A DNA stretch of 60,429 nucleotides from a virus (lineage: Duplodnaviria; Caudoviricetes), in the IMG/VR virus record IMGVR_UViG_3300045996_001806, positions 1 to 60,429 of that record; one strand, given 5' to 3'. Positions 16,890 to 54,895 of the stretch are shown one piece after another. The position numbers and the translations under genes were made by a program. Within the stretch, counting starts at the first letter, position 1, and the number at the start of each line of letters is the position of its first letter. Below the pieces are notes generated by a model. The model was not told where the DNA came from. It searched no databases and saw only the letters and a list, made by a program, of their open reading frames with translations.

Positions 16890-18931
16890 TGCCCTGGTCT
16901 GTCGGAAAGCGCGGGAGCAAGTGGTGCGTCGTCAAGGACGACGATGGCAAGGTCGAGGGTTGTCACGATTCGAGCGCCGCTGCGATCAAGCAGCAGAGGG
17001 CGCTCTACGCGAGTGAGTCGATGGCCGCCAACGGGGATGGCCCCGATACGGCCGAGCTCGCGATGGTCGCGCTCTACCCGCGTCTGGAGGAGGCCGAAGC
17101 ACTCGCCGTCGAGGGCGGTCTCGAGGTCGACGATCTGCACGTGACGCTCATCTTCCTCGGCGAGGTGGGAACCTTCGATGAGGAGGCGCTGCCCGAGGCC
17201 GTCGGCCGAGTAGCCATGTCACACAGCCCGCTCGAGGGAGTGGTTGGCGGCACCGGCTACTTCAGCGCGAACGAGGACGGCGTGCCCGTGATCCTGCTCC
17301 CCGACGTTCCCGGTCTGAGCCGCGTGCGCGAAGACATCGTGGGCGAGTTGCGCGCGCAGGGCATCGAGTCACCCTCCGAGCACGGATTCCTTCCACACAT
17401 GACCCAGATCTACGTCGATTCCGTCGACGACGCTCCGCCTCGAGAGAACCCTCTCGGCCAGGCACTCCACTTCGATGCGGTCTCCGTCGTCATCGGCGAC
17501 CGTCGCCAGGACTACCCTCTCGGAGGTGAAGAGATGAGCACCAACACCGTCACCGTCAAGATCATCCCGGACTTCAGCGAGTGGGATGCCGCGCTCGCGC
17601 AGCGAATCGACATCCTGCCGGGGACGGCTGCGAACGCGGCCGCGGGCGCCATGTGGGAGCTCGCTGCAGGCGCCGTCGCCGCCGTCGAGGCAGGGCAGCA
17701 GTGGGAGGGCATCCTCGCCTTCGAGGCCTACCCCTCCGACGGTGATGGCGGTCTCAAGCGCTACCTGATGACGCCTCTCGGGCATCGCGAGCTGCCGCTG
17801 TCTCTCATGGCGCAGTTCGTGAACGAGGAGGGCCACAAGAAGGCGGGGATCGCCGGCCGCATCGACACGATCGAGCGCATCCCCGCCTCGGAGTTCGCCC
17901 ACGAGGGCTTCGATCTTCCAGACGACCTGCCCGAGGACGCTTTCGTGCACTTCGGGACTGGCGTCTTCGACACGGGAGAGGTTGGCGCCGAGGCTGCGCG
18001 GCTCGTCGAGGCGAAGATGCTGCGAGGCGTCTCCGTCGATCTTTCCGGGACGAAGTGGGTCCCGCTCGATGCCGAGACCTTCCAGGAGATCGAGCAGAAC
18101 GAGATGGGCATGGAGCGGATGCTGCGCGGCGTGCTCGCTGGCGGGAAGAACTCGAAGATCGCCGGCGCCACGATCGTCGCGCATCCCTCGTTCGGCCATG
18201 CGCGCGTCGATCTCGTCGCCTGCGCGTTCGCATCGGCGGAGATCCGCCTGGTGCACGAGGAGGATCTCGTCGCCTGCGCCGCTGGCCCGATCGCGCCGCC
18301 CGCGGAGTGGTTCGCGAACCCGCAGTTCAAGCAGCAGACGCCGGTCACGGTCACGGGCGACGGGCGGGTCTCCGGCCACATCGCGACCTGGGACTGCCAC
18401 ATGGGCTACGAGAACATGTGCATGACGGCCAAGCCGTCCCGCGACGGCTACGCGCGCTTCCACACGGGGACGCTCATCACCGACGACGGCACTCCGGTGA
18501 AGATCGGCCGCATCTCGGTTGCGCCGCACGCGCCGAAGCGCATGTCGCCCGAGCAGGTCATGGCGTACTACTCGGACGCGAAGAAGGTCGCCGCGTTCGT
18601 CTGCCTGTACGAGGACCGCTTCGGGATCGCGTGCGCTGGCGTGACGCGCTCGGATGCGCCGCGCGAGCTCCTGCGCGACTTCCTCGCCAATCCGCCGTCG
18701 GGCGAGTGGCGCCGCGGGGAGTTGCTCGGGATCTCGTCGGTGCCTCTGCCGGGTCTCCCGGTGGTCGCTCCCGAGGCGTACTTCGTGGCGTCCGCCGACG
18801 GCGGTGATGTCACGCCCGAGATGCTGATCCTGCCGCCAGTCGAAGCGCCGGAGCCGACGGAGGACGAGATGGTCCTCGCGGCGGCGGCTGCCGGGGGCGC
18901 GGAGACGCTCCTCGGAGTCATCGCCGGCTGA
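16889..18931 (+). CDS. Prohead maturation protease with N-terminal 2H phosphoesterase domain
   Basis: HVT (17138) and HMT (17396) motifs; protease region H..A.IAGRI, RGVSVD, GATIV..PSF; internal SD GGAGGTG + ATG 17534. Confidence 0.8.
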   Translation: MPWSVGKRGSKWCVVKDDDGKVEGCHDSSAAAIKQQRALYASESMAANGDGPDTAELAMVALYPRLEEAEALAVEGGLEVDDLHVTLIFLGEVGTFDEEALPEAVGRVAMSHSPLEGVVGGTGYFSANEDGVPVILLPDVPGLSRVREDIVGELRAQGIESPSEHGFLPHMTQIYVDSVDDAPPRENPLGQALHFDAVSVVIGDRRQDYPLGGEEMSTNTVTVKIIPDFSEWDAALAQRIDILPGTAANAAAGAMWELAAGAVAAVEAGQQWEGILAFEAYPSDGDGGLKRYLMTPLGHRELPLSLMAQFVNEEGHKKAGIAGRIDTIERIPASEFAHEGFDLPDDLPEDAFVHFGTGVFDTGEVGAEAARLVEAKMLRGVSVDLSGTKWVPLDAETFQEIEQNEMGMERMLRGVLAGGKNSKIAGATIVAHPSFGHARVDLVACAFASAEIRLVHEEDLVACAAGPIAPPAEWFANPQFKQQTPVTVTGDGRVSGHIATWDCHMGYENMCMTAKPSRDGYARFHTGTLITDDGTPVKIGRISVAPHAPKRMSPEQVMAYYSDAKKVAAFVCLYEDRFGIACAGVTRSDAPRELLRDFLANPPSGEWRRGELLGISSVPLPGLPVVAPEAYFVASADGGDVTPEMLILPPVEAPEPTEDEMVLAAAAAGGAETLLGVIAG

Positions 18932-19542
18932 GCGTTTCGTTCTGCATCCAGCACCACCCAGCGCGGGCGCATCTCACCTCGAGGATCCTCGAGCGCGTCG
19001 GTGGGGCTGAGCTCGTCACCGACCCCGATCCGGATGGCGAGCGCAGCCCCTTCCGCACCTACCAGGAGTGCCTGCGTCGCACGCCTGAAGGCGTAACGCA
19101 TCGCTGCGTGGTCCAGGACGACGTGCTCTTCTGCGACAACTTCCGTGAGCGCGCAGAGGCGGCGATCGCAGAGCACCCGACGGCCCTCATGGCGTTCTTC
19201 GTCCCCGGGATCTCGTCCTGCGGAAGCCAGCGGGTCATGTACGCGCTGCAGAAGCGGGAGCCCTACGCGAACATCAGCGGAGCGACCACGATCCCGGTCG
19301 TCGCGCTGGCCTGGCCGGTCGAACAGATCCCACCATTCCTGCGCTATTGCTCGCTCCCGCGCTGGGCGAATCAGCGTGGCGACGACACCGTAGTCGGCTA
19401 CTTCGTGAAGACGAATCGGCTGACAGTTCTGGCAACAGTGCCCTCGCTCGTCGAGCATCCTGACATCGAACCGAGCCTGGTCAGAGGCCAGAACTTCAAC
19501 GGGAAGAGCCGCATTCGCAAGGCCGCGTATTTCGCTGGCTGA
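18928..19542 (+). CDS. Glycosyltransferase (GT-A), probable CTG start
   Basis: Frame open from CTGA overlap: SFCIQHHPAR...VVQDD...PSLVEH. Confidence 0.75.
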   Translation: MSVSFCIQHHPARAHLTSRILERVGGAELVTDPDPDGERSPFRTYQECLRRTPEGVTHRCVVQDDVLFCDNFRERAEAAIAEHPTALMAFFVPGISSCGSQRVMYALQKREPYANISGATTIPVVALAWPVEQIPPFLRYCSLPRWANQRGDDTVVGYFVKTNRLTVLATVPSLVEHPDIEPSLVRGQNFNGKSRIRKAAYFAG

Positions 19543-19550
19543 CTTGCGCG

Positions 19551-19573
19551 ACTGCGAGCGACGCGGATACAAC
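19551..19573 (+). promoter_or_regulatory. Putative late promoter (variant)
   Basis: ACTGCG-N11-TACAAC upstream of the capsid gene. Confidence 0.45.
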
Positions 19574-19661
19574 CTTCCCTCGACGGCCGCGTAGGCAGCC
19601 GACCAAGCCGAGACCGTAGGGACCCGGCGCTGATGTTTTCGACCAGCGAAGGAGTCCCAGG

Positions 19662-21479
19662 ATGCTTTTCCCACAGGTTCCCGAGGATCTCTCGGCCGTC
19701 GATCCCGACGAGCTGCGCGGACTCCTCGACACGTTCACGTCCACCGCCGCGAGCCTGATCGCCGACATGCGTCGGCCGGTCGAGGAGCGGCAGGTCGACA
19801 TCGGAGACATGAGCGCCGCCGATCTTCTCGAGGCACTCAAGGCCGCCGCGACCGACCGCAAGCGGATCGAGGACCATCTCGCCGGACTCGCGGAGTCCGA
19901 GCAGAACTTCCTCACCGAACTCGCGTCCGTCGCTGGCGACCTCGGCGTTGTCGAGGCGAGCGCCGAGTTGGTCGCCGAGACCGAACCCGAGCCCGCTCCC
20001 GAGCCGGAGCCCGCTCCCGAGCCGAGCGAGCCGGAGCCGAGCGAGCCGGAGCCGGAGGCAGCCGCCGAGCCGGTGGCGGCCGCGCCCGCGCTCGCCGTCG
20101 CCGAGGCAACGCCGGAGCCGGAACCCGAGCCGGAGCCCGCTGCCGTCCGCAACCTCTCGATCCCGAGGGGACCGGCGGCGATGGAGCCGCGGCCGACGAT
20201 GGCCGATGGCCAGCCCGCGCAACTCGTCGCGTCGGCGGGTCTCGGCCGCATCGCCCTCCGCGAGGGCCTCGTGCTGGATCGGCTCACGTTCTCCGAGGCC
20301 GTCCGCGACCTCGCGCGCGATCTCGGGCCGCCCAAGCACGTCCGGGGCGGAACCCGCGACTTCTACCCCGTCGCCAAGACCGAGTTCCGGTTCCCGGAGG
20401 AGTTCACGCTCGGCGTCGGCGGCGAGGCGGAACTCGACAAGATCCGCGCCGTCTCGTACCAGTTCCTCGGTCTGCCGGAGGGCGCGTCGATCGACGACGT
20501 GTTCCAGGCGGCCGGCGGAATCTGCGCCCCGCCCACGCCCTTCTACGACGTCCCGAGCTTCGCGTCGCGTGAGCGGCCGGTGCGCGGCGCGCTGCCGAGC
20601 TTCTTCGCGGCACGTGGCGGCGTCTCGCTCCCGTCGGTCTCGACGATCGACCGGGCAGACGAGGGCGTCACGGTCATCGAGGAGTCCGAGGACGCGCAGG
20701 GCGGAACCTTCTCCGCGAAGTCCTGCCGCCGCGTCGAGTGCGCGACGTGGACGGAGACGTTCGTCGGGATCATCTCGCACTGCCTCGAGGTCGGAACGCT
20801 CAACGCCCGGACGTGGCCCGAGGGCATCGCGCTCGAGGAGGACAACCAGATGGCGGCTCACGCCGGCATCGCGGAGGCACGCCTCCTCAACCGCATCAAG
20901 GCCCTCTCGATCCAGCCGTCCAGCTACGGCCAGCCCTACAACGGCGTGCACGGCTTCATCTACGCGCTCGCCAGGGCGAAGGCCGCGATCCGGAACCGCC
21001 TGCGGGCGGCTTCGGGGGCGACGTACACGGCCCTACTCCCCGAATGGGTCCAGGAGTTCCTGGTCGCCGACCTCGCCGCGCAGTCGCAGAACGACGATCG
21101 CTACGTCTCGCTCGCAGCGGTCCAGCGGTTCTTCGAGCAGCTCGGCGTGACGCCGGTCTGGTACAAGGACTCGCCCACCACGGGTCCCGTCCAGAACTTC
21201 ACGGCCGAGGTCGGCGGCACCCCGCTCGACGACTTCCCGGACAACGTGCAGTGGGCGCTGTTCATCAACGGCACCTTCCTCCACCTCGACGGGGGCTCGC
21301 TCGAGCTCGGACTCGTCCGCGACTCGACGCTCAACCACCAGAACGACCACGAGCTGTTCGGGGAGTCGTTCGAGAACGTGGCCCGGGTTGGTCCGGAGCA
21401 GTCGGCTCTGTGGCTGACGAACGCAATCTGCCCGTCGGGCGTCTTCCCGCCGGCAGCGTCCGCGGCCCTGACCTGCTGA
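19662..21479 (+). CDS. Major capsid protein with N-terminal scaffold-like region and Pro/Glu linker
   Basis: AAGGICAP..P.YD, LPSF...RGG, K.C.RV.C, DGGSLELGLVRDSTLN..ND..FGESFE. Confidence 0.9.
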   Translation: MLFPQVPEDLSAVDPDELRGLLDTFTSTAASLIADMRRPVEERQVDIGDMSAADLLEALKAAATDRKRIEDHLAGLAESEQNFLTELASVAGDLGVVEASAELVAETEPEPAPEPEPAPEPSEPEPSEPEPEAAAEPVAAAPALAVAEATPEPEPEPEPAAVRNLSIPRGPAAMEPRPTMADGQPAQLVASAGLGRIALREGLVLDRLTFSEAVRDLARDLGPPKHVRGGTRDFYPVAKTEFRFPEEFTLGVGGEAELDKIRAVSYQFLGLPEGASIDDVFQAAGGICAPPTPFYDVPSFASRERPVRGALPSFFAARGGVSLPSVSTIDRADEGVTVIEESEDAQGGTFSAKSCRRVECATWTETFVGIISHCLEVGTLNARTWPEGIALEEDNQMAAHAGIAEARLLNRIKALSIQPSSYGQPYNGVHGFIYALARAKAAIRNRLRAASGATYTALLPEWVQEFLVADLAAQSQNDDRYVSLAAVQRFFEQLGVTPVWYKDSPTTGPVQNFTAEVGGTPLDDFPDNVQWALFINGTFLHLDGGSLELGLVRDSTLNHQNDHELFGESFENVARVGPEQSALWLTNAICPSGVFPPAASAALTC

Positions 21480-21489
21480 AGCGGTAGGT

Positions 21490-21558
21490 AGCGAGGAGGA
21501 GACCCGATGTTGAGCGATATGGCACAGCCAGTGCTCTTCATCGGGTCTCCGTTCGCTC
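21490..21558 (+). other. Long RNA hairpin covering SD and ATG of a 29-aa uORF (21507-21596)
   Basis: Perfect 12-bp inverted repeat GGAGACCCGATG (21498-21509)/CATCGGGTCTCC (21539-21550) with inner GAGC/GCTC and TGGC/GCCA. Confidence 0.65.
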
Positions 21559-21608
21559 GAACTGCCGAGCCCCACGACCAGAGGCCCTACCTCTAGGAGG
21601 ACTGAACC

Positions 21609-28342: not shown

Positions 28343-28798
28343 GTGAGCAAGAACTTCGACGAGGAGGTGCGCGCGGAACGCTTGACGCGCGACAACACCT
28401 TCGTCATCGGGGGCGAGGAGTTCGCATTCAGGCTGGACTTCACCCCCGAGCAATTCTCGGAGCTCACCGCGGACTACGCGGCGATGCAGATCGAGACGAT
28501 GAAGCCGGGCGAGGCGACGACGATCGTGGACGAGACGATCAAGGGCTTCCTGTACGACGACGAGAATCGCGAGCGTTGGGATGCTCTGCGCGCTCGAGCT
28601 GGCGGCGAAGAGGGCGTCGAGAACGCTGAAGACCTCGCCGTCACCGCCTACGACATGAGGCAGGTCATCCTCTTCCTCATCCAGGAGCAGACCGGCCGCC
28701 CTACGGAAGCGCCCTCCCGATCTGGGAACGGGCGCGAAAGCACTGGCCTGAGATCGACGGCGCCCTCCTCCTCGCAAGTGGTGGCCTCGGGGGGCTAG
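28343..28798 (+). CDS. Tail assembly chaperone (G)
   Basis: SD AAGGAG, upstream of tape measure, TGRPT then low-complexity tail. Confidence 0.8.
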   Translation: MSKNFDEEVRAERLTRDNTFVIGGEEFAFRLDFTPEQFSELTADYAAMQIETMKPGEATTIVDETIKGFLYDDENRERWDALRARAGGEEGVENAEDLAVTAYDMRQVILFLIQEQTGRPTEAPSRSGNGRESTGLRSTAPSSSQVVASGG

Positions 28799-29022
28799 GG
28801 AAGTTGTCGATCCCGGAGATCGTGAACGTGACGGAGGCGTACTTCCGCGAGCACGCTTCGCCTGAACGTGTCGCAGAGCTCGAGAGGGTGCTCGCTTCTA
28901 CGACGCCTCCCTCGACCTTCACGCCGCCGACCCCGAAGCGCCGGGAGCATCGTGGTAAGACTGTCGCCAACACCAATGCCCGCAACATCGCCATGTTGCG
29001 CGGCATGGTTCCGAAGGGCTAG
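28699..29022 (+). CDS. Tail assembly chaperone -1 frameshift extension (GT)
   Basis: -1 frame open 28630-29022 and protein-like from PYGSALPIWERARKHWPEIDG; shift probably at CGC CCT A. Confidence 0.7.
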   Translation, partial: PYGSALPIWERARKHWPEIDGALLLASGGLGGLGKLSIPEIVNVTEAYFREHASPERVAELERVLASTTPPSTFTPPTPKRREHRGKTVANTNARNIAMLRGMVPKG

Positions 29023-29025: not shown

Positions 29026-31995
29026 GTGGCGGATCCGATCGCTGAAGCGTTCGTCGCGATCCGACCGGATCTCAGTCAGTTCGAAGGCGATCTGCAGAGA
29101 GGGATCACCCGCGCCCTCCGCGGCGTCACCATCCCGTCATCTGCGCAGCAGAACCTCGGCACCCAACTCTTCGGGCCGGGGTTCTTCTCGCAGGTGTCGA
29201 CCAGGACGACGCAGGCGGTCAGCGGCACGAAGATCCCGACGACGACACAAGCTGGACTCGCCCAGGCTCTCTTCGGCCCGGGCTTCCGCAACGAGACCGG
29301 CCGAGCGATTCAGGGCGCCCTGGTCGGTCTCGGAGGCGGGCAACTCGCCGCCCGCTTCGCCTTCTTCGGCGCCGGCGGAGCCGCGATCGCCGCGATCGCT
29401 AGCGGGTTCGTCGCTTCGGCGCAGGCCGCCGGCACATTCGAGCAGTCGCTCAATGTGCTGCAGGCGACGGCGGATGCGACCGACGAGCAACTCGAGCAGA
29501 TGGCGGAACTGGCCCGTGATCTGGGCGCGGATCTGACCCTCCCGGCCGTTACGGCACAGAACGCCGCCGATGCGATGACCGAGCTCGCTCGAGCCGGGCT
29601 CGACGTGAACGAGGTCATGGGCGCCGCTCGCGGGACCTTGCAGCTAGCGACGGCGGCGAACACGGATGTGGCGACCGCGGCGCGGATCGTGGCAACGTCG
29701 CTCAACGCTTTCAACCTCGCCGGCGAAGAGGCCACCAGGGTCGCCGACCTCCTGGCGGCGGCTTCGATCAATGCCTCGGGCGATATGCAGGACTTCGCAC
29801 TGGCAATCCAGCAGTCGGCGGCGGTCGCCGATCTCGCGGGCCTCACGATCGACCAGCTCGTCGGTGCGCTGACCCTGCTGGCAAACCGCGGCCTCATCGG
29901 ATCGGACGCAGGCACCTCGCTCCGCACGGCACTCCTGCGGCTCATACCGACGACTCGCGAGGCGGCGCAGTTCATGGAGGTCCTCGGGATCCAGATCGAC
30001 CGCACCCGCACGGTTGGGCAGCAGTTGCCGGACCTGCTCGATCAGTACCAGGCCTCTCTCGCCCGGCTCAACCCGACGCTCCGCCAGGCCGTGCTCGCGC
30101 AGATCGCCGGCCAAGACGCGGTGCGATCGCTCTCCTTCCTCATCGAGGGAGGCGGCGACGAGCTCGAGCGCTACATCGAACTGACGAGCCAGGGTGGAGA
30201 AGCCCAGCGGCTCACCGAGGCACGTACCGAGGGCTTCCTCGGAGCACTCCAAGGGCTGAACTCGCAGTTGCAGACGCTCTCCACCAATGTCGGCGGCCTC
30301 TTCATTCCCGTGCTGACGGAGGTGACGAGGGTCGTCACGGGACTCATCGCGCCGATCAACGAACTCTTCGAGGCGCTACGCAAGCTCGACGACCTCGACA
30401 TCAGCGTCGACATCGACTTCCCCGATCCTCCGGACTGGCTGGACGCGCCGTTCTTCGACGTCGATGACGTCATTCCGAGCGATCTCGCGGCTCTCCTCCG
30501 AGACAGGCTCAACCCGATTCCCATCTCGATCCGGGCGACTGTGACCGCAGCGCGCGAGCTACGCGGCGCGCTCGAGGACCTCGGCTTCGTGGACGCTGCG
30601 AATGAGGCTGAGGACTTGGCCGAACGCGCCGAGCGTCTGAACGAGGAACTCTTCGCAGCCGGCACAACTCGCGCTCGGCGCATCCAGATTCAGACCGAAC
30701 TGCGAGTGATCGCGCGCGAGCTCGATGATCTGAGCGCGACCGCAAAGCGGAGCGCCGATACCACCGCTGATGTGTTTACGACCGCCTTCGGACCACTCGC
30801 GGACGCTCTTCGGCCCCCGCTTCAGCAACTTGAGTCGCAACTCCAGGCTGCCGTCGATCCGAACGTTCTCGGCCGTCAGCTTCAGCGCGCGCTCGCTCTT
30901 CTCCAGCGTGGCGACATCTCCGACCAGGCCCGCGAAGCGGCCCGTGGTCTCGTCTCGAGCCTGATCGAGGAACTAGCCAGCCTCGGCCCGGAAGGCGAGC
31001 GTGTTCTCACGTCCCTCGGGGGCCGCCTGATGCAGGCGCTCGGAGATGGCATCACGGCAGAGGAGCAGGTGGCGATCAACGCTGCGCGGCGCGCTCTGGG
31101 GCAGGTCATACAGGAGGGCGAGCGACAGGTTCTGGAGGCCATCCGCTCGGCGCGCGGGAACCTCGAGTCTCTCGGCGAAGGCCTCGGCGACGACCTCGGC
31201 GAGATCATCGAGATCGGACCGATCGGCCAGGCCATCGACCGCATCGAGGAGGAACTCGACCGGCTGCAGGAGACCGTCACGCGCCGCCAGCTTCGTTTCG
31301 ACTTCCGCGAGGCGAAGAGGGACCTGCGTGACGCGAAGGAAGCGATCATCCAGGTCGGCGAGCTCACCCCGGCCCAGAAGCGCGCGCAGCAGGAGTTCCT
31401 CGAGCCGTTCCAGGAGAAGGTCAAGGATGCCAAGTCGTCTCTCCGGGAGTTCGACCTCACCGAGCAGCAGGAGCAACTCGAGGCGACCCGTGACGCTGCC
31501 ATCGACGCGGCCGACAAGGGCATACAGCGCCTGATCCTCAAGTTCGAGGAGGGCAAGCTGTCAGCCGGCGAGTTCGAGACCGCGCTTCGGCGCGAACTCG
31601 GGCCGGCCTTCGACATTCTCGGCTCGAAGGCGGCCTCGGCCCTGGATCCCTTCGTCGTCATCAACTTCCGGCGCGAGGTCGACGCGCTCATCGAGCAGGC
31701 CAAGGCGCTCTCGGCCTTCTTCCCGCTCGGAGGGAGCACGACGCCGGGCGCCACCGTCGTCAAGCCTGCTGAGACCCAGGCGCAGGTGAACCAGCGCATC
31801 GCCGAGTCGGCCGCGTCGCTCGCCCGGATCGAGGCCGACGCGAAGCGCCTTTCGGCGGAGGAGCAGGACAAGCAGCAAGCGGTGATCGGGATCCTGAAGC
31901 AGATCGCGAGGGCGCTCGGCGTCGGTGGCCCAGCCGGCGGTGGCAAGGCCTCCACGGTGCCGAGCAAGACCCCCACGATCCGAGGGGGTGACTGA
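29026..31995 (+). CDS. Tape measure protein (TP901-family core)
   Basis: IAEAFV.IRPD, A.AM.ELARAG, GSDAGTSLRT, long helical protein. Confidence 0.92.
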   Translation: MADPIAEAFVAIRPDLSQFEGDLQRGITRALRGVTIPSSAQQNLGTQLFGPGFFSQVSTRTTQAVSGTKIPTTTQAGLAQALFGPGFRNETGRAIQGALVGLGGGQLAARFAFFGAGGAAIAAIASGFVASAQAAGTFEQSLNVLQATADATDEQLEQMAELARDLGADLTLPAVTAQNAADAMTELARAGLDVNEVMGAARGTLQLATAANTDVATAARIVATSLNAFNLAGEEATRVADLLAAASINASGDMQDFALAIQQSAAVADLAGLTIDQLVGALTLLANRGLIGSDAGTSLRTALLRLIPTTREAAQFMEVLGIQIDRTRTVGQQLPDLLDQYQASLARLNPTLRQAVLAQIAGQDAVRSLSFLIEGGGDELERYIELTSQGGEAQRLTEARTEGFLGALQGLNSQLQTLSTNVGGLFIPVLTEVTRVVTGLIAPINELFEALRKLDDLDISVDIDFPDPPDWLDAPFFDVDDVIPSDLAALLRDRLNPIPISIRATVTAARELRGALEDLGFVDAANEAEDLAERAERLNEELFAAGTTRARRIQIQTELRVIARELDDLSATAKRSADTTADVFTTAFGPLADALRPPLQQLESQLQAAVDPNVLGRQLQRALALLQRGDISDQAREAARGLVSSLIEELASLGPEGERVLTSLGGRLMQALGDGITAEEQVAINAARRALGQVIQEGERQVLEAIRSARGNLESLGEGLGDDLGEIIEIGPIGQAIDRIEEELDRLQETVTRRQLRFDFREAKRDLRDAKEAIIQVGELTPAQKRAQQEFLEPFQEKVKDAKSSLREFDLTEQQEQLEATRDAAIDAADKGIQRLILKFEEGKLSAGEFETALRRELGPAFDILGSKAASALDPFVVINFRREVDALIEQAKALSAFFPLGGSTTPGATVVKPAETQAQVNQRIAESAASLARIEADAKRLSAEEQDKQQAVIGILKQIARALGVGGPAGGGKASTVPSKTPTIRGGD

Positions 31996-40684: not shown

Positions 40685-41473
40685 ATGGCACTCACGCTCT
40701 CTCAGTTCCCGTACACAGGCCCGCTCTACGGCCCCTCGCATCCAGAGGGGCCAACGCTGAACCGCAGTTCGGTGAAGGGGATCAAGCGGGCGATGATTCG
40801 CCTGCGCTACCTCGACACGGATCTCGGCGACGAGACGGACGACTTCGGCGGCGAGCTCGAGCGCGCGCTCAAGGTCTACCAGCGCGAGGTCGGCCTCTCA
40901 GGCACCGGCCAGTACGGCCGTGGAACGTGGACCGCGCTTCGCTACGAGAAGCTCACCGCGGGGCCGAACAAGGGCCAGTACGCAGTCGACGCGCTCGCCC
41001 GGGAGTACGTCCAGCAGGACGCGCTGCGCAAGTGCCATCCGCACGAGGCCGGCGTCGACTCGAGCATCTGCCAGGGTCTGCATCAGACCTCCGGCCTGCT
41101 CGGCAACTGGGCGATCGACTTCTGCGCCGATGGCGGGACGAAGGTCGTCGCTGTCGAGGCGGCGAAGATCACGAAGCTCTCGGGCCGCGACCCAGCGCTC
41201 GGCGAGCTTCCGAACTCGCCCGGCATCTTCGGCTGGTCGATCCACTACGAGACGCCTTCCGGGTACCGCTACTTCTCGACGCACTACGGCTGGCGGGCCA
41301 ACCTGGCGATCGGCACGGCTGTCGACTGCGGCCAGGTGCTCGGGACGGTAGGCGACTGGCCGAACGATCCTCCGCGATCGCATACGCACCTCGGCGTCAC
41401 CTCGCCGCTCGGTACGGCGGACGCGAAGAAGAGGATCACCGAGATCTCGAAGGCCCCGCGCGTCGTCGTCTAG
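40685..41473 (+). CDS. Endolysin: peptidoglycan-binding domain + M23 peptidase
   Basis: FG.....ALKVYQR..GL..TG..G..TW; H...AIDF, STH, HTH. Confidence 0.85.
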   Translation: MALTLSQFPYTGPLYGPSHPEGPTLNRSSVKGIKRAMIRLRYLDTDLGDETDDFGGELERALKVYQREVGLSGTGQYGRGTWTALRYEKLTAGPNKGQYAVDALAREYVQQDALRKCHPHEAGVDSSICQGLHQTSGLLGNWAIDFCADGGTKVVAVEAAKITKLSGRDPALGELPNSPGIFGWSIHYETPSGYRYFSTHYGWRANLAIGTAVDCGQVLGTVGDWPNDPPRSHTHLGVTSPLGTADAKKRITEISKAPRVVV

Positions 41474-47615: not shown

Positions 47616-47777
47616 ATGCGGAGGCTGCTCGGACGCTGGCTCTGCCGCCTTGGTCGTCACGACTGGCGCTACTACATCGGCCACGATTTCGGCGCTGGGC
47701 TGAGCACCGCTGTGGTCGCGCGCTGTCGTCGACGTTGCGGCATCCCTGACGAACTCATCGAGGTCGTGCGTGGCTGA
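47616..47777 (+). CDS. Small Zn-binding protein (DUF1660-like)
   Basis: WLCRLGRHDW...CRRRCG. Confidence 0.65.
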   Translation: MRRLLGRWLCRLGRHDWRYYIGHDFGAGLSTAVVARCRRRCGIPDELIEVVRG

Positions 47778-47779
47778 CA

Positions 47780-47956
47780 ATGCTGACCCAGCGTGACTAC
47801 CTCGAGATCGAACTGCAGGGCCTGGAACGACGTCTCGCTGACGTTACGGCCCCAGGCCGTCAAGTCGCACCGACCGAAGAAGGCCGGGCCTATCGCGAGA
47901 AGCTCGAAGACGACATCGCCGAGCTCCGGGAGCGACTGGCGTCCGAGGGGGGTTAG
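47780..47956 (+). CDS. Hypothetical coiled-coil protein (58 aa)
   Basis: MLTQRDYLEIELQGLERRL... Confidence 0.65.
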   Translation: MLTQRDYLEIELQGLERRLADVTAPGRQVAPTEEGRAYREKLEDDIAELRERLASEGG

Positions 47957-48145
47957 ATACTCACGTCACTTCAGATAGCAGCCCTCGTCACGGTCATCGT
48001 GGTGGTCTCGGCTCTCTGGTTGTGCGTGTACCTCAAGGCCTCCGCGATGACGGAGCAAGCCCGCGCTCGTTTGGCAAGCGCGGAGGACCTGTCATCGGAC
48101 AAGGAGAAGGGATCATCTTTCGTGTTTTCGCAGGAGTCGTCATAG
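47957..48145 (+). CDS. Small membrane protein, probable ATA start
   Basis: SD GAGGGGG then ATA; ILTSLQIAALVTVIVVVSALWLCVYL is a full TM helix. Confidence 0.5.
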   Translation: MLTSLQIAALVTVIVVVSALWLCVYLKASAMTEQARARLASAEDLSSDKEKGSSFVFSQESS

Positions 48146-48879
48146 CCGCCGCGGCCGCCATCGCTTTCGTAGGCTTCACGGGCTCGGGGGCCGCCGTGGG
48201 CGAGCACCCCTTTCGTGCTCAGGCCGTAACGGACCCCAGCGCGGTTGCAGCCGCGAAGTCGAGAGGGACTGTGCGGCGGTGCCCCGATGCCCGTGGGGGA
48301 TTGCGCTTCTATCGCGTGCGCTACTCGCACCACCGCGGGGTGCGTGGCCTAGATACGCCCTGGCCGGCGGGTCGCAAGCCTCGCAACTGCGCGGACGCTC
48401 GGTACCTGTCAAGCGACGTGTGGCCTGGCCGCGCGTACAAGGAGCGGTTGAGAACGCAGAAGTGGCTTCAGTTCCAACTGCCGGACGTGGCCTCCTGGCT
48501 CGTGGCTGTGCGAATCGTGCAGCGCTTCTTCCCAGGCACCGAGCGATGGATGCTCTCGTGCTCAGACGCCGAGGGCTACAACAAGGGCGACCCTACGCGC
48601 TGGGTCACTTACGGGGGCGATCCCTTTTCGATGGCCGCCTGGTTCGCCGACGAGGTAGGGGGTCCTCCGCAGTACCGGCCAAGCACGTTCCAGGGCCACT
48701 ACCGCAACGGTCTCGACTACATCGAGGCCCGTGGCTATCGCGCTCCAGACCACCTACGCGACCACTCGACGACGACCGCCTGGCGCTCGATGTTGGCACA
48801 GGCGATCGCGATGGGCTGGGCGAGGTTCACCGGCAACGACAACTCCCACTGGTCCGCGAGTTGGGGCAACGGCTGCTGA
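48112..48879 (+). CDS. Secreted lysozyme/transglycosylase-like protein, probable ATC start
   Basis: SD AAGGAG before ATC ATC; signal peptide; C..AEG...GPPQYRPSTF...HW. Confidence 0.6.
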   Translation: MIFRVFAGVVIAAAAAIAFVGFTGSGAAVGEHPFRAQAVTDPSAVAAAKSRGTVRRCPDARGGLRFYRVRYSHHRGVRGLDTPWPAGRKPRNCADARYLSSDVWPGRAYKERLRTQKWLQFQLPDVASWLVAVRIVQRFFPGTERWMLSCSDAEGYNKGDPTRWVTYGGDPFSMAAWFADEVGGPPQYRPSTFQGHYRNGLDYIEARGYRAPDHLRDHSTTTAWRSMLAQAIAMGWARFTGNDNSHWSASWGNGC

Positions 48880-49763: not shown

Positions 49764-49794
49764 GTGCCTGTGGCCCCGCTCCACCCCCGAGTCC

Positions 49795-49823
49795 TTGACA
49801 CCCGTTTTATAAAACGAAAGACT
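49795..49823 (+). promoter_or_regulatory. Promoter with perfect 14-bp palindromic operator
   Basis: TTGACA-N17-AAGACT; CGTTTTATAAAACG at 49803-49816. Confidence 0.7.
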
Positions 49824-49833
49824 GGCATTCTCG

Positions 49834-50085
49834 TTGCCACGTGTCAGTCCGTATCTCGCTCTTCAGATCGTCCCTCGTTTTCGTGAGATCCGTGGCACTC
49901 GCAGACTCCTTGCGATGAACGAGCTCACGCAGATCCGCGACTACCCGAAAGGAATTCCCGTGGCGACCCTCTCACAGATCGAGCATGGCCATCGCATTCC
50001 GCGCCCAGAGGAGATGGACCGCCTCGAGCGCGCCTATGGCCATCGCGATCGCTGGTACGCGGTCGAGTTGCGGATCGTCGGATGA
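49834..50085 (+). CDS. XRE-family HTH regulator
   Basis: GIPVATLSQIEHG.R.P...E..RL..AY. Confidence 0.75.
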   Translation: MPRVSPYLALQIVPRFREIRGTRRLLAMNELTQIRDYPKGIPVATLSQIEHGHRIPRPEEMDRLERAYGHRDRWYAVELRIVG

Positions 50086-50699
50086 GCGGCTACGCAGACC
50101 TGCGCGAGCTCGGCGTCGCGTTCGTGCCGCCCGATGGCCCGATGCCTCCGGCGCTCAACCGCGTCCCCCAGTTCAGCGCGTCGTGGTCGCAGACCGTCGA
50201 GCTTCTCGCTCGCGAGCTTCGACACCTGGACGCAAAGGGAATCTCGATCGAGCTCGACATGGAGGCGCGCATGTTCCGGCAGGACGGCCTGCCGCGCTCG
50301 GACGCGCGCTCGCGCTCCGACGCCGTGCGGATCTCCTTCACCTCGCGCTTCGGGCCGCTGCGCTACGAGACGGGGGAGTTCCGGGCCAGCCCGTACTACC
50401 GCTCGTCGCTGGCGGGCTGGCAGAACAACCTGCGCGCGATCGCGCTCTCGCTCGAGGCGTTGCGCAAGGTCGACCGCTATGGCGTGTCCAAGCGCGGCGA
50501 GCAGTACCGCGGCTGGCGGGCGCTGCCTACTGGCACGGACCCGGCCGACGCGATCGCGACACCGGAGATCGCGCGTGCGTTCCTGGCGCAGTGGGGAGGC
50601 GACTGGAAGACCGCCGTGAAGGCTACGCACCCCGACGCCGGCGGCGATCCGACCGAGTACCGCAAGGTCATTCGGGCCAAGGAGCTCGTCGGCGCCTGA
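50082..50699 (+). CDS. Phage protein with C-terminal J-domain-like HPD motif
   Basis: W..NLRAIALSLEALRKVDRYGV...EQY.GW.AL; THPDAGGD. Confidence 0.8.
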   Translation: MSGYADLRELGVAFVPPDGPMPPALNRVPQFSASWSQTVELLARELRHLDAKGISIELDMEARMFRQDGLPRSDARSRSDAVRISFTSRFGPLRYETGEFRASPYYRSSLAGWQNNLRAIALSLEALRKVDRYGVSKRGEQYRGWRALPTGTDPADAIATPEIARAFLAQWGGDWKTAVKATHPDAGGDPTEYRKVIRAKELVGA

Positions 50700-51220
50700 T
50701 GTACGCGGGCATCGACTACGACACGAACACGGTGCACGTCGTGCTGCTACCCGAGGAGGAGCCGCCGCGCTACCTGCCCTTCGTGATGCATGGCCATGAT
50801 TCTTTCGAGCGCGCGCGCGCGGTGCGAGAAGTGATGCCTCCGCGCGGCTGGTGGGACGATGAGGGTGTGATCGCGATCGGTATCGAGGACCCGATGCAGA
50901 AAGGACCCGCGAGTCGCACCTTCCTGCCGAAGCTCAAGATGATCCAGGGTGCCATCCTGGCCTGCCTGCCGCCCGGCACCCTGGTTCAACCCTTCGTAGC
51001 GACGTCGTGGCGGAAGGAGGTCGGCCTCTCTGGGCGCGCGACGAAGGAGGACATCGCCGACTTCGTGTACGACGCTCAGAACCAGGGCGATGCGCGCGAG
51101 GGCGACGTTCTCGAGCTTGACACGCGCGCCTTCTGGGACGCGCAGTGGCCGCAGGACGCCTGCGATGCGTACTGCCTCGCGCTCTGCGTCGAGAAGCTGA
51201 CCGAGCCGATGGCAGCCTGA
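50699..51220 (+). CDS. RuvC-like Holliday junction resolvase
   Basis: YAGID, IE.P, WRK.VG..G.ATK, QD.CDA. Confidence 0.75.
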   Translation: MYAGIDYDTNTVHVVLLPEEEPPRYLPFVMHGHDSFERARAVREVMPPRGWWDDEGVIAIGIEDPMQKGPASRTFLPKLKMIQGAILACLPPGTLVQPFVATSWRKEVGLSGRATKEDIADFVYDAQNQGDAREGDVLELDTRAFWDAQWPQDACDAYCLALCVEKLTEPMAA

Positions 51221-51990
51221 TGCCACAGCCCGGTCTTCGCGGGAACCGCGCGCGGAACTACCGCAAGGTGAAGCGGCTGCGCGACAAGGGCTACTACCAC
51301 CGGGAGATCGCGTACCTCACGGGCCTCTCACGTTCCTATGTCGCCTGCCTTCTCAGCGATCCCGATGGCAGGGCCGATCGTGTCCGCAAGGCGAGCTACG
51401 CGGGTACGTGCGGTCGCTGCGGAGGTCCCACCGATGGCAGCAACGGGCGCGCGCAAGCGCCGGACTACTGCGCTACGTGCCATCCAATCGTCATGCGCAA
51501 GTGGACACGCGAGCGCGTGGTCGAGGCTGTCCGAGAATGGGCGCGGCGCCGTGGACGTGCTCCTACCGCGAATGAGTGGATCGCCAGGGTGGTCGATCCC
51601 GACGGCTACGAGTTCCCGCCTCGCACCGCGGTGTACGACTCCGGCAATCACTACCTGCGACCGAACTTCGACTCGTGGGCGGACGCGATCGAGGCGGCTG
51701 GATTCCCGCACCCGGGATCGAGCCGCAACTACATCGACAAGGACGAATGGAGGGTGGAGAACATGGGTGACGTGAAGCTCACCAGGCAGTACGTCGTCTT
51801 CAAGGTTGGAGAAGACGGCGAGCTCGAGGTCCTCGACCAGCACGTCGAGGCCTCGACGCTCAACGGCGCCGTCGAATCTGTGGCGGTCTCCGGTCACGCG
51901 AAGTACGCGGCCATTCCGCGATCGCAGGTCATCGAGTTCAGCGCTCAGCCGAGGTTCGTCGCCTCGAGAAACGGGAGGGATGATGGTTAG
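51220..51990 (+). CDS. HTH + Zn-finger + homing-endonuclease-associated repeat protein
   Basis: REIA..TGLSRS.V, CGRC..C..C, WTRE.VVEA.REW....GR.PT..EW...F.SW..A.EAAG. Confidence 0.7.
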   Translation: MPQPGLRGNRARNYRKVKRLRDKGYYHREIAYLTGLSRSYVACLLSDPDGRADRVRKASYAGTCGRCGGPTDGSNGRAQAPDYCATCHPIVMRKWTRERVVEAVREWARRRGRAPTANEWIARVVDPDGYEFPPRTAVYDSGNHYLRPNFDSWADAIEAAGFPHPGSSRNYIDKDEWRVENMGDVKLTRQYVVFKVGEDGELEVLDQHVEASTLNGAVESVAVSGHAKYAAIPRSQVIEFSAQPRFVASRNGRDDG

Positions 51991-52294
51991 GCCACGCAGT
52001 AGACGCAGGGTGCAGATGTCCCTGTACGAGTCGGACGTCACCGAGCACCACCCCGATCTCGTAAAGGCACTCAACCATCGGCAGGCGATGTCCGAAGCGC
52101 TGTCGACGGCGAAGCAGAACTACGACACCGCGCACAAGGCGTGCGAGCCGCTCATCGCGAAGCTCGAGCTGGGCGAGGACGCCGCGGTGCGGGTGGGCGA
52201 CTTCGTGATCTCGCAGAAGCTCGGCAAGTCCGCGCACGTGGAGTTCGAGCGGAAGTCGTCACTGCGCACGAGGATCCGCAAGCTCGATGAGTGA
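51980..52294 (+). CDS. Hypothetical protein
   Basis: SD GGGAGG. Confidence 0.65.
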   Translation: MMVRPRSRRRVQMSLYESDVTEHHPDLVKALNHRQAMSEALSTAKQNYDTAHKACEPLIAKLELGEDAAVRVGDFVISQKLGKSAHVEFERKSSLRTRIRKLDE

Positions 52295-52829
52295 CGCGAT
52301 CCTCCGGATCTACAACCCCGAGGAGTGCCAACTCACGGGGTACCCGGCGGCGTGGGACCACGACTCGTTCATCGGGGCCGATCGCTTCCCGGCGATCAAG
52401 CACTACGTGCGGATGCTCGCCGGCGATCGCTGCGAGCGCTGCGGGCATCCGTACAGGGTCGGCCAGTCGGAGCCTCAGTGGTCGGCCTGCGACGAGCAGT
52501 GCGTACACGACGGACCCGTGAAGAAGGTGATTAGCGACGGCATCGAGTTCGAGCTCGTGCTGGCGAAGTGGCGCGTTCTCACCGTCCACCACCTGAACGG
52601 CGTCAAGTACGACTGCCGCTGGTGGAACCTCGCTGCTCTCTGCCAGCGCTGCCACCTCTCGATCCAGGGCCGGGTCGTCATGGAGCGCGCGTTCATTTTC
52701 GAGCACTCCGACTGGTTCAAGTCGCACGCGGCAGGCTGGTACGCCGACAAGTACCTCGGCGAGGACCTGAGTCGGGAGGAGACGTTCGCGCGCATGGACG
52801 AGCTCCTCGCGCTCGAGCAGCTCGCATGA
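52287..52829 (+). CDS. HNH endonuclease
   Basis: RCERCG, LTVHHL.G...DC...NL.ALCQRCH. Confidence 0.85.
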   Translation: MSDAILRIYNPEECQLTGYPAAWDHDSFIGADRFPAIKHYVRMLAGDRCERCGHPYRVGQSEPQWSACDEQCVHDGPVKKVISDGIEFELVLAKWRVLTVHHLNGVKYDCRWWNLAALCQRCHLSIQGRVVMERAFIFEHSDWFKSHAAGWYADKYLGEDLSREETFARMDELLALEQLA

Positions 52830-53035
52830 CGCTCTCGGAGAGACAGCGCCGCGCGCTCATCGTGCTGCGCAGCCACGGCAACTGGATGAGTTCGGGCCAC
52901 TTTGGCGTGAGAACGAACACCCTCGACTCGCTCCAGAAGAAGGGTCTCGTCGAGATGCGGACGCGCTACCACTCGCTCGACTTCGAGTACCGCATCATCG
53001 ACGACGGCCGGCGCCTACTGGCGTCCCTCGAATGA
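52826..53035 (+). CDS. Small winged-HTH-like protein
   Basis: LSERQRRAL...TL.SL.KKGLVE...Y.I...GR. Confidence 0.7.
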   Translation: MTLSERQRRALIVLRSHGNWMSSGHFGVRTNTLDSLQKKGLVEMRTRYHSLDFEYRIIDDGRRLLASLE

Positions 53036-53076
53036 GGTATTTCGCGCTCGAAGCGACAGGCCCGGATCGTTGGCCC

Positions 53077-53105
53077 TTGTAAGACGTCGGGTATGCCGTT
53101 AGGCT
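53077..53105 (+). promoter_or_regulatory. Sigma70/SigA-type promoter of the helicase gene
   Basis: TTGTAA-N17-TAGGCT. Confidence 0.7.
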
Positions 53106-53110
53106 CGTCG

Positions 53111-53250
53111 TTCTCGTGACGAGCTCTCTCTATAGGCCTGGGCAGTACCACCCGGGGTCGGTGCTCGTGGCGAAGGCGGGATCTGCTGCGGCGGATCCAG
53201 CCGCTCGCTCGTCACGAGGAGCCGCGAGCACCGTCCCGGGGTGGGGCTGA
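53111..53250 (+). ncRNA. Structured 5' leader RNA with 44-aa uORF (53116-53250)
   Basis: About 23-bp helix 53148-53171/53221-53244, inner hairpin, 12-bp complementarity 53113-53124/53207-53218. Confidence 0.65.
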
Positions 53251-53269
53251 GTTCTGGTAGGGCGGTCCG

Positions 53270-54895
53270 ACGTCTTCGCCTGCGCTAGAGCCGTATAACC
53301 TCGAGGCCGAAGAGACCGTACTCGGTGCGTGTCTCCTGTCGGGCTCGGCGATCGACGTCGCGAGCGAGTACCTCGAGCCATCGACGTTCTATCGCGATAC
53401 GCACGGCGCGATCTACGGCGCCCTGCAGGCGCTTCGCTCTCGCGAGCAACCCACAGAGCCGCTTGCCGTCGCGGCAGAACTAGAACGTCAGGGCAAGCTC
53501 GCGGCGGTCGGCGGAAAGGCTCGCCTGGCCGAGCTCGCGGCGCTGGTGCCGGCGACGGGCAACGTCGGCCACTACGCAGCGATGGTGCTCGAGATCCATC
53601 GCTCGCGGGTCCTCTGCCGTGCAGCCGTTGCGATCCAGGCTGCAGCACAGAACGGCGGCGTCTCGCTGCATCCCGAGCTGCTCGACGAGATGCAGGAGGC
53701 GATGGACGCGGCCCGCGCGCTTCCCGGCGAGCCTTCGCTCCCGCCGGGTCCGATCTTCATCACCGCTCACGAGTTCGCGGCGTCGCACTTCGAGCCGCCG
53801 GAGCCGTTGCTCGGGACCACCGAGACGGCGATCCTGGCGGCGGGAAGCTTGAACCTCCTCGCGGGGCGTCCGGGCACCGGCAAGACGACCACCGTGCTCG
53901 ACCTCTGCTGCCATCTCGCTGCAGGTCTTCCCTGGCCTCCAGTCGACCCGGCCAACACGAAAGCTCCGCAGTCGTGGCCGTGCCCCCGCCCCCTTCGCTG
54001 CGCGATCATCGTGAACGAGGGTCCGCAGGAGATGTTCCGGGCCAAGGTGCAGGACAAGCTCACGAAGTTCCCGCACTCGATTGAGGACGCCGGCGGCGGA
54101 CTCTTTATCCAGTCGCTGAACTGGGGCGCGTTCTCTTTCCGCGACCGCTCGATCTTCGAACGCCTGCGCGACGAGCTCGACAGCCGCGACGTTGACCTTG
54201 TGGTCGGAGACCCGCTCGGCTCGCTCGGCCTCGAGGGCGTCGGCTCTCCAGCCGAGACGCTCGACTTCGTGAACCTGCTGAAGCCCCTCGGACTCGGCAC
54301 GCGCAGGGCCTTCCTTTTCCTCCACCACTTCCGCGAGCGAGTCGAGAAGGGAGAGGACGAGGTAGCGCGCCTGTCGGGAGCCTGGGGCGGCCATCTCGAC
54401 ACGCTCATCACGCTCGCCGCCGGGTCGCAGACCGACCAATCGCGCCTCGCCTATCCGAAGTTGCGCTGGAACACCCGAGAAAATCCAAGTCCCATCGTCC
54501 TCGCGCGCATCCGGAACACCCGCAGCGTCGAGGTCATCGGCGAGGAGTCCGACCACACCCTGCTCGAGCCTCAGATCCACGCCTACCTCGAGCGCTCGCG
54601 AGAGACCAAGGCGGATACCCAAGGCTGGCAGACCACGGACCAGATCCGGGCGGGCATCGAGGCTCGCCGCGTGGCCGTGCAGAAGGCCCTCGAGGGCGCT
54701 CCGCATCTCTTCGTCATGGTCACAGGCGACGAGGCCAAGAACCTCGGCGCGAAGTCGAAGGCCGCAAAGCTCTGGGGCCTGCGCGAATGGACAGAGGGCG
54801 AAGACTGGCGCGCCGAGCTCGAGGAGGATTCCTTCGGCAAGGCCGACGAGCAGGCCCGCTTCACGGATCGCGGCTCAGACGACATCCCGTTCTAG
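53270..54895 (+). CDS. Replicative helicase: DnaB N-terminal domain + RepA/AAA_25-like ATPase; probable ACG start
   Basis: PYNLEAEETVLGACLL...FYRDTH..IY...ELE..GKL..VGG in frame upstream of 53546; GRPGTGKT, VVGDPL, FLHH; ends DDIPF. Confidence 0.8.
   Translation, partial: TSSPALEPYNLEAEETVLGACLLSGSAIDVASEYLEPSTFYRDTHGAIYGALQALRSREQPTEPLAVAAELERQGKLAAVGGKARLAELAALVPATGNVGHYAAMVLEIHRSRVLCRAAVAIQAAAQNGGVSLHPELLDEMQEAMDAARALPGEPSLPPGPIFITAHEFAASHFEPPEPLLGTTETAILAAGSLNLLAGRPGTGKTTTVLDLCCHLAAGLPWPPVDPANTKAPQSWPCPRPLRCAIIVNEGPQEMFRAKVQDKLTKFPHSIEDAGGGLFIQSLNWGAFSFRDRSIFERLRDELDSRDVDLVVGDPLGSLGLEGVGSPAETLDFVNLLKPLGLGTRRAFLFLHHFRERVEKGEDEVARLSGAWGGHLDTLITLAAGSQTDQSRLAYPKLRWNTRENPSPIVLARIRNTRSVEVIGEESDHTLLEPQIHAYLERSRETKADTQGWQTTDQIRAGIEARRVAVQKALEGAPHLFVMVTGDEAKNLGAKSKAAKLWGLREWTEGEDWRAELEEDSFGKADEQARFTDRGSDDIPF

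Follow-up and report, generated by a model that had tools for sequence, protein, structure and literature searches.

The 60,429-nucleotide (nt) IMG/VR record IMGVR_UViG_3300045996_001806 (hereafter the window, i.e. the whole stretch of DNA that was analysed) represents the greater part of the genome of an uncultured soil siphovirus, with a G+C content of 63-70% (about 66%). Four of its genes are candidates for a start at a near-cognate codon rather than at ATG, GTG or TTG, namely a glycosyltransferase gene (CTG 18928), a small membrane open reading frame (ORF; ATA 47957), a lytic-transglycosylase-like enzyme (ATC 48112) and a replicative-type helicase (ACG 53270) (Table 1). The original prediction, which was made from the letters of the window, had named these four codons and had linked them to a variant initiator tRNA of the phage; each codon is indeed present in the context described.

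Gene prediction with a crude codon-usage model, trained on 26 long frames, gave 98 genes, and the 95 predicted starts comprise 52 ATG, 37 GTG and 6 TTG codons. As many as 38 of these 95 starts lie in an ATGA, GTGA or TTGA overlap with the preceding stop, and translational chaining is therefore the norm in this phage.

Table 1. Positions of the features discussed (window coordinates unless a locus is named)
Feature	Position	Strand	Remarks
Window	1-60,429		linear IMG/VR record IMGVR_UViG_3300045996_001806, estimated 78% complete
tRNA-Met(CAT), initiator type	5192-5265	+	only tRNA of the window; ARAGORN, Rfam
Upstream head gene	16889-18931	+	phrog_859, annotated 'portal'; TGA stop 18929-31 overlaps CTG 18928
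Glycosyltransferase gene	18928-19542	+	204 aa from CTG; CTGA stop/start overlap; PHROG 854 match
Gene A	47780-47956	+	58 codons, ATG start, TAG stop; last codons carry GAGGGGGG (47945-47952)
One-pass membrane ORF	47957-48126	+	56 codons; same frame as gene A, adjoining its TAG; candidate start ATA 47957
AAGGAG Shine-Dalgarno-like motif	48101-48106	+	5 nt before ATC 48112, 8 nt before ATC 48115
Exported enzyme	48112-48879	+	Ala/Gly-rich hydrophobic leader, lytic-transglycosylase-like C-terminal domain; candidate start ATC 48112 or 48115
Structured helicase leader	53131-53258	+	29-nt imperfect inverted repeat 53143-71 / 53221-49 around two hairpins
Replicative-type helicase gene	53270-54895	+	DnaB_N + AAA_25, 541 aa from ACG; GGGCGG at 53260-65, 4 nt before ACG
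tRNA loci of related records	L069, L070, L072-L076, L089		records G001, G011, G034, G016, G007, G008, G029, G039

Start regions of the glycosyltransferase and helicase genes

The glycosyltransferase frame is open from 18808, and its earliest in-frame ATG, GTG or TTG is GTG 19108, 60 codons after the CTG, which is itself part of the CTGA (18928-31) that ends the 829 open codons of the upstream frame. In PHROG 854 (glucosyltransferase), residues 3-201 of the CTG-started protein match profile positions 3-197 of 211 (Pfam and NCBIfam gave no match), so that the CTG is, as predicted, needed for the first 60 residues. Full-length homologues are 204-212 amino acids (aa) long and start 1-3 residues before an S-x-C-x-Q-H-H-P motif; the initial V of P0001 (75% identical) coincides with the CTG of the window, and the other five proteins in the closest clade are listed in the databases at just 117-144 aa. 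Identity to 12 full-length homologues is 58-73% over residues 2-60, compared to 38-77% for the rest of the protein.

A hidden Markov model made from the full-length members was placed on the window and on 37 related viral loci (38 family members). An ATG, GTG or TTG lies within 3 codons of the predicted N-terminus in 26 of the 38, many as GTGA or TTGA overlaps, and nine (the window, L020, L021, L025, L034, L040, L041, L050 and L051) have CTG at the N-terminus with no canonical start within 10 codons. Since L041 is identical to L040, the CTG state in the eight other loci represents 7 distinct sequences of the 37 loci. Eight of the nine CTG-type members are CTGA overlaps closing an upstream frame of 30-509 codons, and the CTG of the window aligns with the GTG of L019, L028, L029 and L030. 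The other three members consist of L033 with a canonical start at -7, L032 with none, and L035, for which there is only a partial match (with GTGA in a motif scan). Conservation of the start codon in homologues, one of the checks originally proposed, is thus present for CTG (eight other loci, with intact frames), whereas for ACG and ATC it amounts to hints at the protein level only, in the form of truncated or over-extended calls.

Upstream of 18928 the glycosyltransferase frame scores -0.89 per codon (i.e. non-coding-like), versus +0.58 for the head gene's own frame at its C-terminus. A -1 frameshift fusing the glycosyltransferase to the head gene was rejected, as 18808-18931 contains no slippery heptamer (X XXY YYZ). 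It is well supported by the recurring CUGA junction that the CUG within it is the working start of the glycosyltransferase, through near-cognate initiation. The ribosome that terminates the head gene at UGA would restart on the overlapping CUG, as at the GUGA and UUGA junctions of the relatives.

The head gene itself carries an N-terminal LigT/2',5'-RNA-ligase-like (2H phosphoesterase) domain (PHROG 'RNA ligase', 1.2e-19; weak Pfam and NCBIfam matches). Two further glycosyltransferase-like genes (8091-8783 and 10438-11166) lie with this one amid the head genes, from terminase to capsid, and the three hint that virion proteins, or a surface molecule of the host, are glycosylated.

The helicase frame is open for 544 codons after TAG 53258-60, and its earliest canonical start, GTG 53546, is codon 95. 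Pfam DnaB_N (PF00772) covers residues 10-111 with the whole model (E 1.8e-25) and is followed by AAA_25 (PF13481) as the ATPase domain; no match to DnaB_C (PF03796) was listed, which places the protein outside the DnaB family as defined by DnaB_N plus DnaB_C. The DnaB matches in NCBIfam were all far under their cut-offs and limited to the N-domain, position 2 of TIGR00665 falling on residue 7 of the ACG-started protein. Both the roughly 90 aa of DnaB-N sequence that follow TAG 53258 without an ATG, GTG or TTG before 53546, and the location of ACG 53270 behind a G-rich motif resembling a Shine-Dalgarno (SD) sequence, were borne out. The coding score of the helicase begins at about codon 9, compared to codon 95 for the first canonical start, and resorting to the best canonical start costs 32.8 score units, versus 10.7 for the portal, 9.4 for the glycosyltransferase and at most 6.5 for the other complete genes (a value of 41.5 was excluded from this comparison because that frame runs off the window end, and the canonical GTG of the portal fits its profile).

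Helicase homologues of 531-553 aa are 65-72% identical at 98-99% query coverage. The 17 that were aligned start with M, V or L, 4-8 residues before an EPxNxEAEE motif, and T-S-S-P-A-L-E-P of the window aligns with M-S-S-T-D-V-P-P, which puts the ACG at the Met of the homologues. Among the nine available codons (GGC, GGT, CCG, ACG, TCT, TCG, CCT, GCG and CTA), ACG is the sole one-base neighbour of ATG. Residues 10-95 are 51-74% identical to the 17 homologues, compared to 49-73% for the remainder. Of 40 homologues with both PF00772 and PF13481, 19 have a proper N-terminus, four (P0085, P0093, P0094 and P0143) a long, unlikely extension, and 17 a called start inside the domain; some of these 17 may be choices of the gene caller (GAGGAG of the EAEE motif precedes a GTG) or contig ends. 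In P0093, Thr occupies the position of the ACG, and the neighbouring residues include no M, V or L. Scans of viral sequences that used the helicase, the alignment, P0107 and the leader DNA pattern as queries gave no DNA of close DnaB_N relatives; a contig scan of genomes returned one Paenibacillus DnaB, a metagenome scan only N-domain-less or distant helicases, and a search of viral loci with the N-domain alignment six distant loci, each of which starts canonically.

For the 225-nt gap ahead of the helicase gene, folding gives -112.5 kcal/mol (z -4.56), a stability that none of 200 shuffles equalled. The N-terminal extensions of P0093 and P0094 are the helicase leader read as protein (in P0093, RGRCSWRR...PLARHE-PRAPSRGG), and because the same stretch is visible in these calls the leader is a conserved nucleic-acid element. 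An Rfam search assigned it to no family, on account of which a group I intron was dropped, and a scan for promoters and terminators found none. A 15-codon upstream ORF (GTG 53241 to TAG 53288) overlaps ACG 53270; no slippery site was seen for a frameshift from it into the helicase frame, and this option was likewise rejected.

The helicase has no canonical start ahead of an N-domain whose protein sequence is conserved, and that much is robust. That ACG 53270 is the exact start codon is reasonably supported but one step further removed, because simple arithmetic shows that a near-cognate codon within nine codons is not rare; the CTG is exempt from this caveat because it recurs in relatives. The helicase, including its DnaB N-domain, would be translated from ACG 53270 after the weak SD-like GGGCGG, downstream of the conserved structured leader.

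The membrane frame and the exported enzyme

SD-like duplex energies (in kcal/mol, against an assumed anti-SD string) are -12.5 at ATA 47957, the strongest site of the four, -9.6 at ATC 48112, -9.9 at ATC 48115 and -8.1 at ACG 53270. At the canonical alternatives they are -2.8 (GTG 19108), -2.9 (GTG 47999), -2.7 (GTG 48022), -2.2 (GTG 53546) and -1.7 (ATG 53582). As a reference, 36 confident starts average -8.1, and -8 is reached by 10% of background 20-mers. The glycosyltransferase (60 codons) and the helicase (95 codons) have no ATG, GTG or TTG between the in-frame stop and the conserved N-domain, which is not the case for the enzyme; likewise, CTG and ACG align with the start of the homologues, and ATC does so approximately.

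For the membrane ORF, the SD sequence claimed upstream of ATA 47957 is there (GAGGGGGG), but the ATA proved to be the codon right after the in-frame TAG of gene A, so that read-through or a split gene have to be considered as alternatives. The ORF scores +0.19 per codon and has no match in Pfam or NCBIfam, and starting at GTG 47999, its earliest canonical codon, would leave only half of the membrane segment. The case for a start at ATA 47957 is weak: the ORF may be produced by ribosomes that restart at AUA, the codon next to the UAG of gene A, and this is the least secure part of the interpretation.

For the enzyme, the spacing of AAGGAG and the hydrophobic leader are as predicted, but the in-frame canonical GTG 48022 had gone unmentioned, and because of it ATC 48112 is not strictly needed. 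The 30 codons of GTG 48022-48111 score -0.36 per codon (with 0.50 G+C at third positions), compared to +0.16 for the overlapping frame of the membrane ORF there and +0.25 for the leader from 48112; the extension from GTG 48022 looks non-coding. In many of 74 homologues the N-terminus lies at, or inside, a hydrophobic segment that leads into a G-S-G-A-A-like stretch, an arrangement shared by the protein of the window; in some, the call extends further upstream and translates the SD as Q-G-E-G (P0199), and the closest two (P0195 and P0196) are truncated calls. L067 is the only related locus that covers the N-terminus of the enzyme, and its ATC aligns with the second ATC of the window.

Pfam and NCBIfam gave no match for the enzyme. 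Its AlphaFold model has a pLDDT (predicted local distance difference test) of 74.8, and the fold of residues 151-285 is best matched by phiKZ gp144 (Z 7.4, root mean square deviation 2.8, 100 aligned), MltC (7.0), Slt70 (7.0), Pseudomonas aeruginosa Slt (6.9) and MltE (6.7), Z values that are middling and under the caution line of 8; Foldseek found no significant match in the PDB. Glu184 is invariant in 20 sequences. An enzyme of the lytic-transglycosylase kind has to be exported across the membrane, which favours a start upstream of the leader. A near-cognate start at ATC 48112 is plausible in view of the motif and the leader, and the enzyme probably starts at AUC 48112 or 48115 behind AAGGAG, by which it would keep its export leader.

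The two genes recall, by resemblance only, a signal-anchor-release endolysin with a small holin, in that a one-pass membrane ORF directly precedes an enzyme with a hydrophobic N-terminal segment; unlike such a pair, they sit amid early and replication genes. A second weak endolysin match lies at 40685-41470.

Probable near-cognate starts, and possible split genes or shortened proteins

Judged by these comparisons, it is fairly probable that in this phage with its densely chained genes a few use weak, non-standard start codons that are read by the ordinary initiator tRNA, with the phage's own tRNA as a separate feature of the whole group. The likely outcome would be low-level synthesis of the proteins concerned, and it is reasonable to suppose that weak starts keep some of them scarce. 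Start-less frames need individual reading, however, as the frame 28630-29022 illustrates: it is explained by a -1 frameshift in the tail assembly chaperone pair (28343-29022, beside the tape-measure gene), where the slippery G GGG GGC at 28789-95 immediately precedes TAG 28796 and the -1 frame stays open up to 29022. A number of observations also weigh against near-cognate starts, and these are taken up below with the rival that each of them favours.

The rival that survives best concerns the membrane ORF, which could simply be the second half of one gene (47780-48126) with an in-frame TAG that is read through at low level, or that has split the gene by a nonsense mutation and left a silent tail. 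In line with this, the ATA adjoins the TAG without a change of frame. Moreover, the membrane ORF alone has no homologue (0 matches among 1.84 billion protein representatives), and together with gene A it is weakly collinear with one gene of L067 that encodes 139 aa and precedes the homologous enzyme there (7/15 identical at the N-terminus, E 0.006; 6/11 in the membrane segment, E 0.64), which suggests a gene split by TAG. Set against this are the weakness of that similarity, the positive coding score of the ORF, the strong SD-like GAGGGGGG, whose spacing suits a start at 47957, and the fact that TAG is an ordinary stop here, ending 29 of the 98 predicted genes, with Met-CAT as the sole tRNA. 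A split or read-through gene is for these reasons rather unlikely, though it is the most serious of the alternatives. Wholesale recoding of TAG was rejected outright on the same stop usage, the lack of a suppressor tRNA and the score of -0.42 per codon for the frame before TAG 53258.

A second rival holds that the start codons were recently lost, and that shorter proteins are made from GTG 19108 or 19123, from GTG 53546 or ATG 53582 and from GTG 48196, or that the genes are dead. The codon scores of the start-less N-terminal stretches are lower than those of the rest of the gene, both in the glycosyltransferase (+0.07 versus +0.44) and in the helicase (+0.28 versus +0.50), and the calls in IMG/VR itself are the short forms (P0002, 139 aa; P0083, 437 aa). 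All seven distant DnaB_N loci with DNA (L055 and L090-L095) have canonical starts, and the helicases of the relatives L002-L007 (411-413 aa) have no DnaB_N at all, so that a protein from GTG 53546 or ATG 53582 might work. For the enzyme, both GTG 48022 and GTG 48196 are canonical options, the latter with an SD-like G-run (-8.6) and with homologue P0241 called from the aligned position, and L067 has a GTG, part of a GTGA overlap, three codons past the aligned ATC, where the window has GTT (4 codons 3' of ATC 48112).

Shortened proteins would, however, leave much unexplained. Conservation of the N-terminal stretches equals that of the remaining protein sequence, with no stop or frameshift in them, and the CTG state is found with intact frames in the eight other loci (7 distinct sequences). 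Three members of the helicase subclade (P0093, P0106 and P0114) also lack a canonical N-terminal start, going by their protein calls, and yet the DnaB_N domain of the window is matched at the E value given above. The internal starts have no SD-like pairing to speak of (-1.7 to -4.0); a start at GTG 53546 would fall within DnaB_N, one at GTG 19108 would leave the glycosyltransferase fold without its first 60 residues, and a wall-cleaving enzyme without its leader would remain in the cytoplasm. Recent loss of the start codons is thus improbable, distinctly more so than a split membrane gene.

The initiator-type tRNA and the wider context

Bacterial initiator tRNA is characterised by the absence of a Watson-Crick pair at 1:72, a CAU anticodon, A11:U24, three G:C pairs (29:41, 30:40 and 31:39) and the loop CUCAUAA. 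The tRNA of the window has a C1-U72 mismatch, A11:U24, the stem U29:A41/G30:C40/G31:C39 and the anticodon loop UUCAUUG, i.e. it shares the 1:72, CAU and A11:U24 features and departs from the three G:C pairs (two of three) and from the loop. Eight more initiator-type tRNA-Met genes are present in related records, all with a 1:72 mismatch (C-U, C-C, U-C or U-U), and in at least four of these relatives (G001, G008, G034 and G039) it is the sole tRNA match of the record. Their anticodon loops are CUCAUAA (three times), CCCAUAA, CUCAUGC, UUCAUGC, CUCAUAC and UUCAUGA, so that the nine phage tRNAs differ at positions 32, 37 and 38, and five of them depart from AA at 37-38. In G001 the gene lies directly 3' of the glycosyltransferase gene.

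Whether such a tRNA could relax the choice of start codon, and thereby switch on the genes with near-cognate starts, was the subject of the link originally proposed. Start fidelity depends on initiation factor 3 (IF3), which selects against non-canonical starts, and on the three G:C pairs of the initiator tRNA, which this factor examines (PMC2268962); the tRNA of the window is atypical precisely there (two of the three pairs) as well as in its U37/G38. In addition, three CTG-type phages have a tRNA of this kind. However, the link is not supported: the tRNA accompanies 3 of 9 CTG-type records and 5 of 29 others (raw counts, in which absences weigh little because most records are fragments), G033 (95% complete, CTG-type) is without one, and G011 (100% complete, GTG-type) has one. 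The closest relative by tRNA, G034, combines a normal CUCAUAA loop with a CTG-started gene. Furthermore, one change in a tRNA cannot explain four codons, because their mismatches fall on three different anticodon positions (36, 35 and 34), and variation at 32, 37 and 38 is what would be expected for nuclease evasion (PMC10264068). It is therefore very unlikely that the variant tRNA relaxes start choice, and there is equally little chance that a lineage of soil phages has long kept its helicase, glycosyltransferase and holin-like/transglycosylase pair on near-cognate starts as a start-stringency switch, with its own tRNA raising initiation.

The phage initiator-type tRNA most likely supplies an initiator tRNA with an altered anticodon loop that would escape host tRNA nucleases. 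Anticodon-loop changes in phage tRNAs have been proposed to serve escape from host anticodon nucleases, and cleavage of initiator tRNA by VapC is cited in that connection (van den Berg et al. 2023, PMC10264068). The variation at loop positions 32, 37 and 38 in the window and its relatives resembles those mutated tRNAs. According to that study, phages as a rule do not encode tRNA-fMet where the anticodon itself is the target, whereas here the initiator type is the commonest and often the only tRNA.

That all four sites are sequencing or assembly errors, the record being a metagenome assembly, is extremely unlikely, since contigs from other studies show no differences at three of them and the CTG state is found again in unrelated assemblies. 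Of the read check originally proposed, these three sites (47957, 48112 and 53270) passed at contig level, and 18928 lay outside it. Logan contigs from other soil studies (run X4, spanning 47700-48090 and 53241-53658; run X3, spanning 48033-48453 and 53018-53588) have 0 differences at ATA 47957, ATC 48112, TAG 53258 and ACG 53270, which are not assembly errors because these independent contigs are identical; a contig of run X1 covers the whole stretch but may be the window's own source. One low-depth X4 contig joins 51560 to 52740, skipping 1179 nt including an HNH endonuclease gene (52287-52826). It may represent a variant without the endonuclease, a weak hint because the shorter side of the joint has only 22 letters.

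As for the remainder of the genome, PHROG matches identify the large terminase (6137), portal (15078), major head protein (19662), major tail protein (21609) and tape measure (29026), and 3' of these structural genes follow RecT-like, exonuclease and helicase genes and a leftward arm at the right end of the window. DNA searches of cultured phages gave no close phage, and the protein search only distant DnaB-like genes (<33% identity). CTGATG junctions, in which the stop TGA shares one base with the next ATG and an in-frame CTG lies one codon 5' of it, recur at 31992, 39023, 40682, 43006, 50696 and 51217. On the minus strand, only the last ~97 codons (54878-55168) of the long frame 54875-55960 are coding-like, and these match only the C-terminal part (132-219 of 236) of a DNA methyltransferase profile; the frame may be a truncated or split methyltransferase. 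To the right of this part, some 550 nt (55177-55730) lack a clear coding signal on both strands.

The classic conserved non-canonical starts of bacteria include the AUU of infC, the AUU of pcnB and the CUG of Escherichia coli hda. The window resembles these in having a one-base neighbour of AUG at an N-terminus defined by homology, with weak initiation that would be due to the normal initiator tRNA, and differs in that no autoregulatory logic is known for it and in that ACG is a mismatch at the second position. To our knowledge, ACG is not among the classic non-canonical starts, and the 12 of 37 literature matches listed for ACG start codons in bacteria show, at the level of the listing, no natural bacterial or phage example. 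In E. coli, according to bioRxiv 10.1101/063800, AUA, AUC, AUU and CUG initiate at 1-2% of AUG and an ACG start yields an N-terminal Met, but ACG belongs to the 0.1-1% class, i.e. it is a very weak start, which counts against the helicase start.

Overlapping ATGA and GTGA gene pairs are translated by termination-reinitiation (Huber et al. 2019, PMC6728339; review PMC12548453). The co-directed 4-nt overlap of the window corresponds to these, as do the GTGA or TTGA forms of the same junction in relatives; unlike them, the gene of the window starts at CUG, and a term search of the two sources gave no mention of CUG or CTG. Because the start within the overlap is CTG instead of a canonical codon, the junction is classed as a variant of coupling by 4-nt overlap. 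Reinitiation at non-canonical codons as described in PMC4648390 was rejected as a parallel, since it concerns Xenopus oocytes.

Non-canonical start genes and NTGA coupling are known phenomena, to which the window adds another case. In practice, standard gene callers (ATG, GTG and TTG only) remove the catalytic N-terminus of the glycosyltransferase and the DnaB N-domain of the helicase, so that in the databases the glycosyltransferase of the window has 139 aa (204 aa from the CTG) and its helicase 437 aa (541 aa from the ACG). This truncation apparently affects a sizeable share of the relatives, with 9 of 38 glycosyltransferases in the CTG state and about 17 of 40 helicase N-termini inside the domain (some of which may be contig-edge or caller artefacts). 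The CTGA series is comparative evidence that restart after a stop tolerates CUG, a point absent from PMC6728339 and PMC12548453. A natural ACG start, if true, would be unusual for bacteria; conceivably, though with little probability, ACG serves a whole phage helicase family as its natural and conserved start codon, a first in that case for any bacterial system. Finally, the group-wide occurrence of phage initiator tRNAs with variable anticodon loops is a lead for phage counter-defence.

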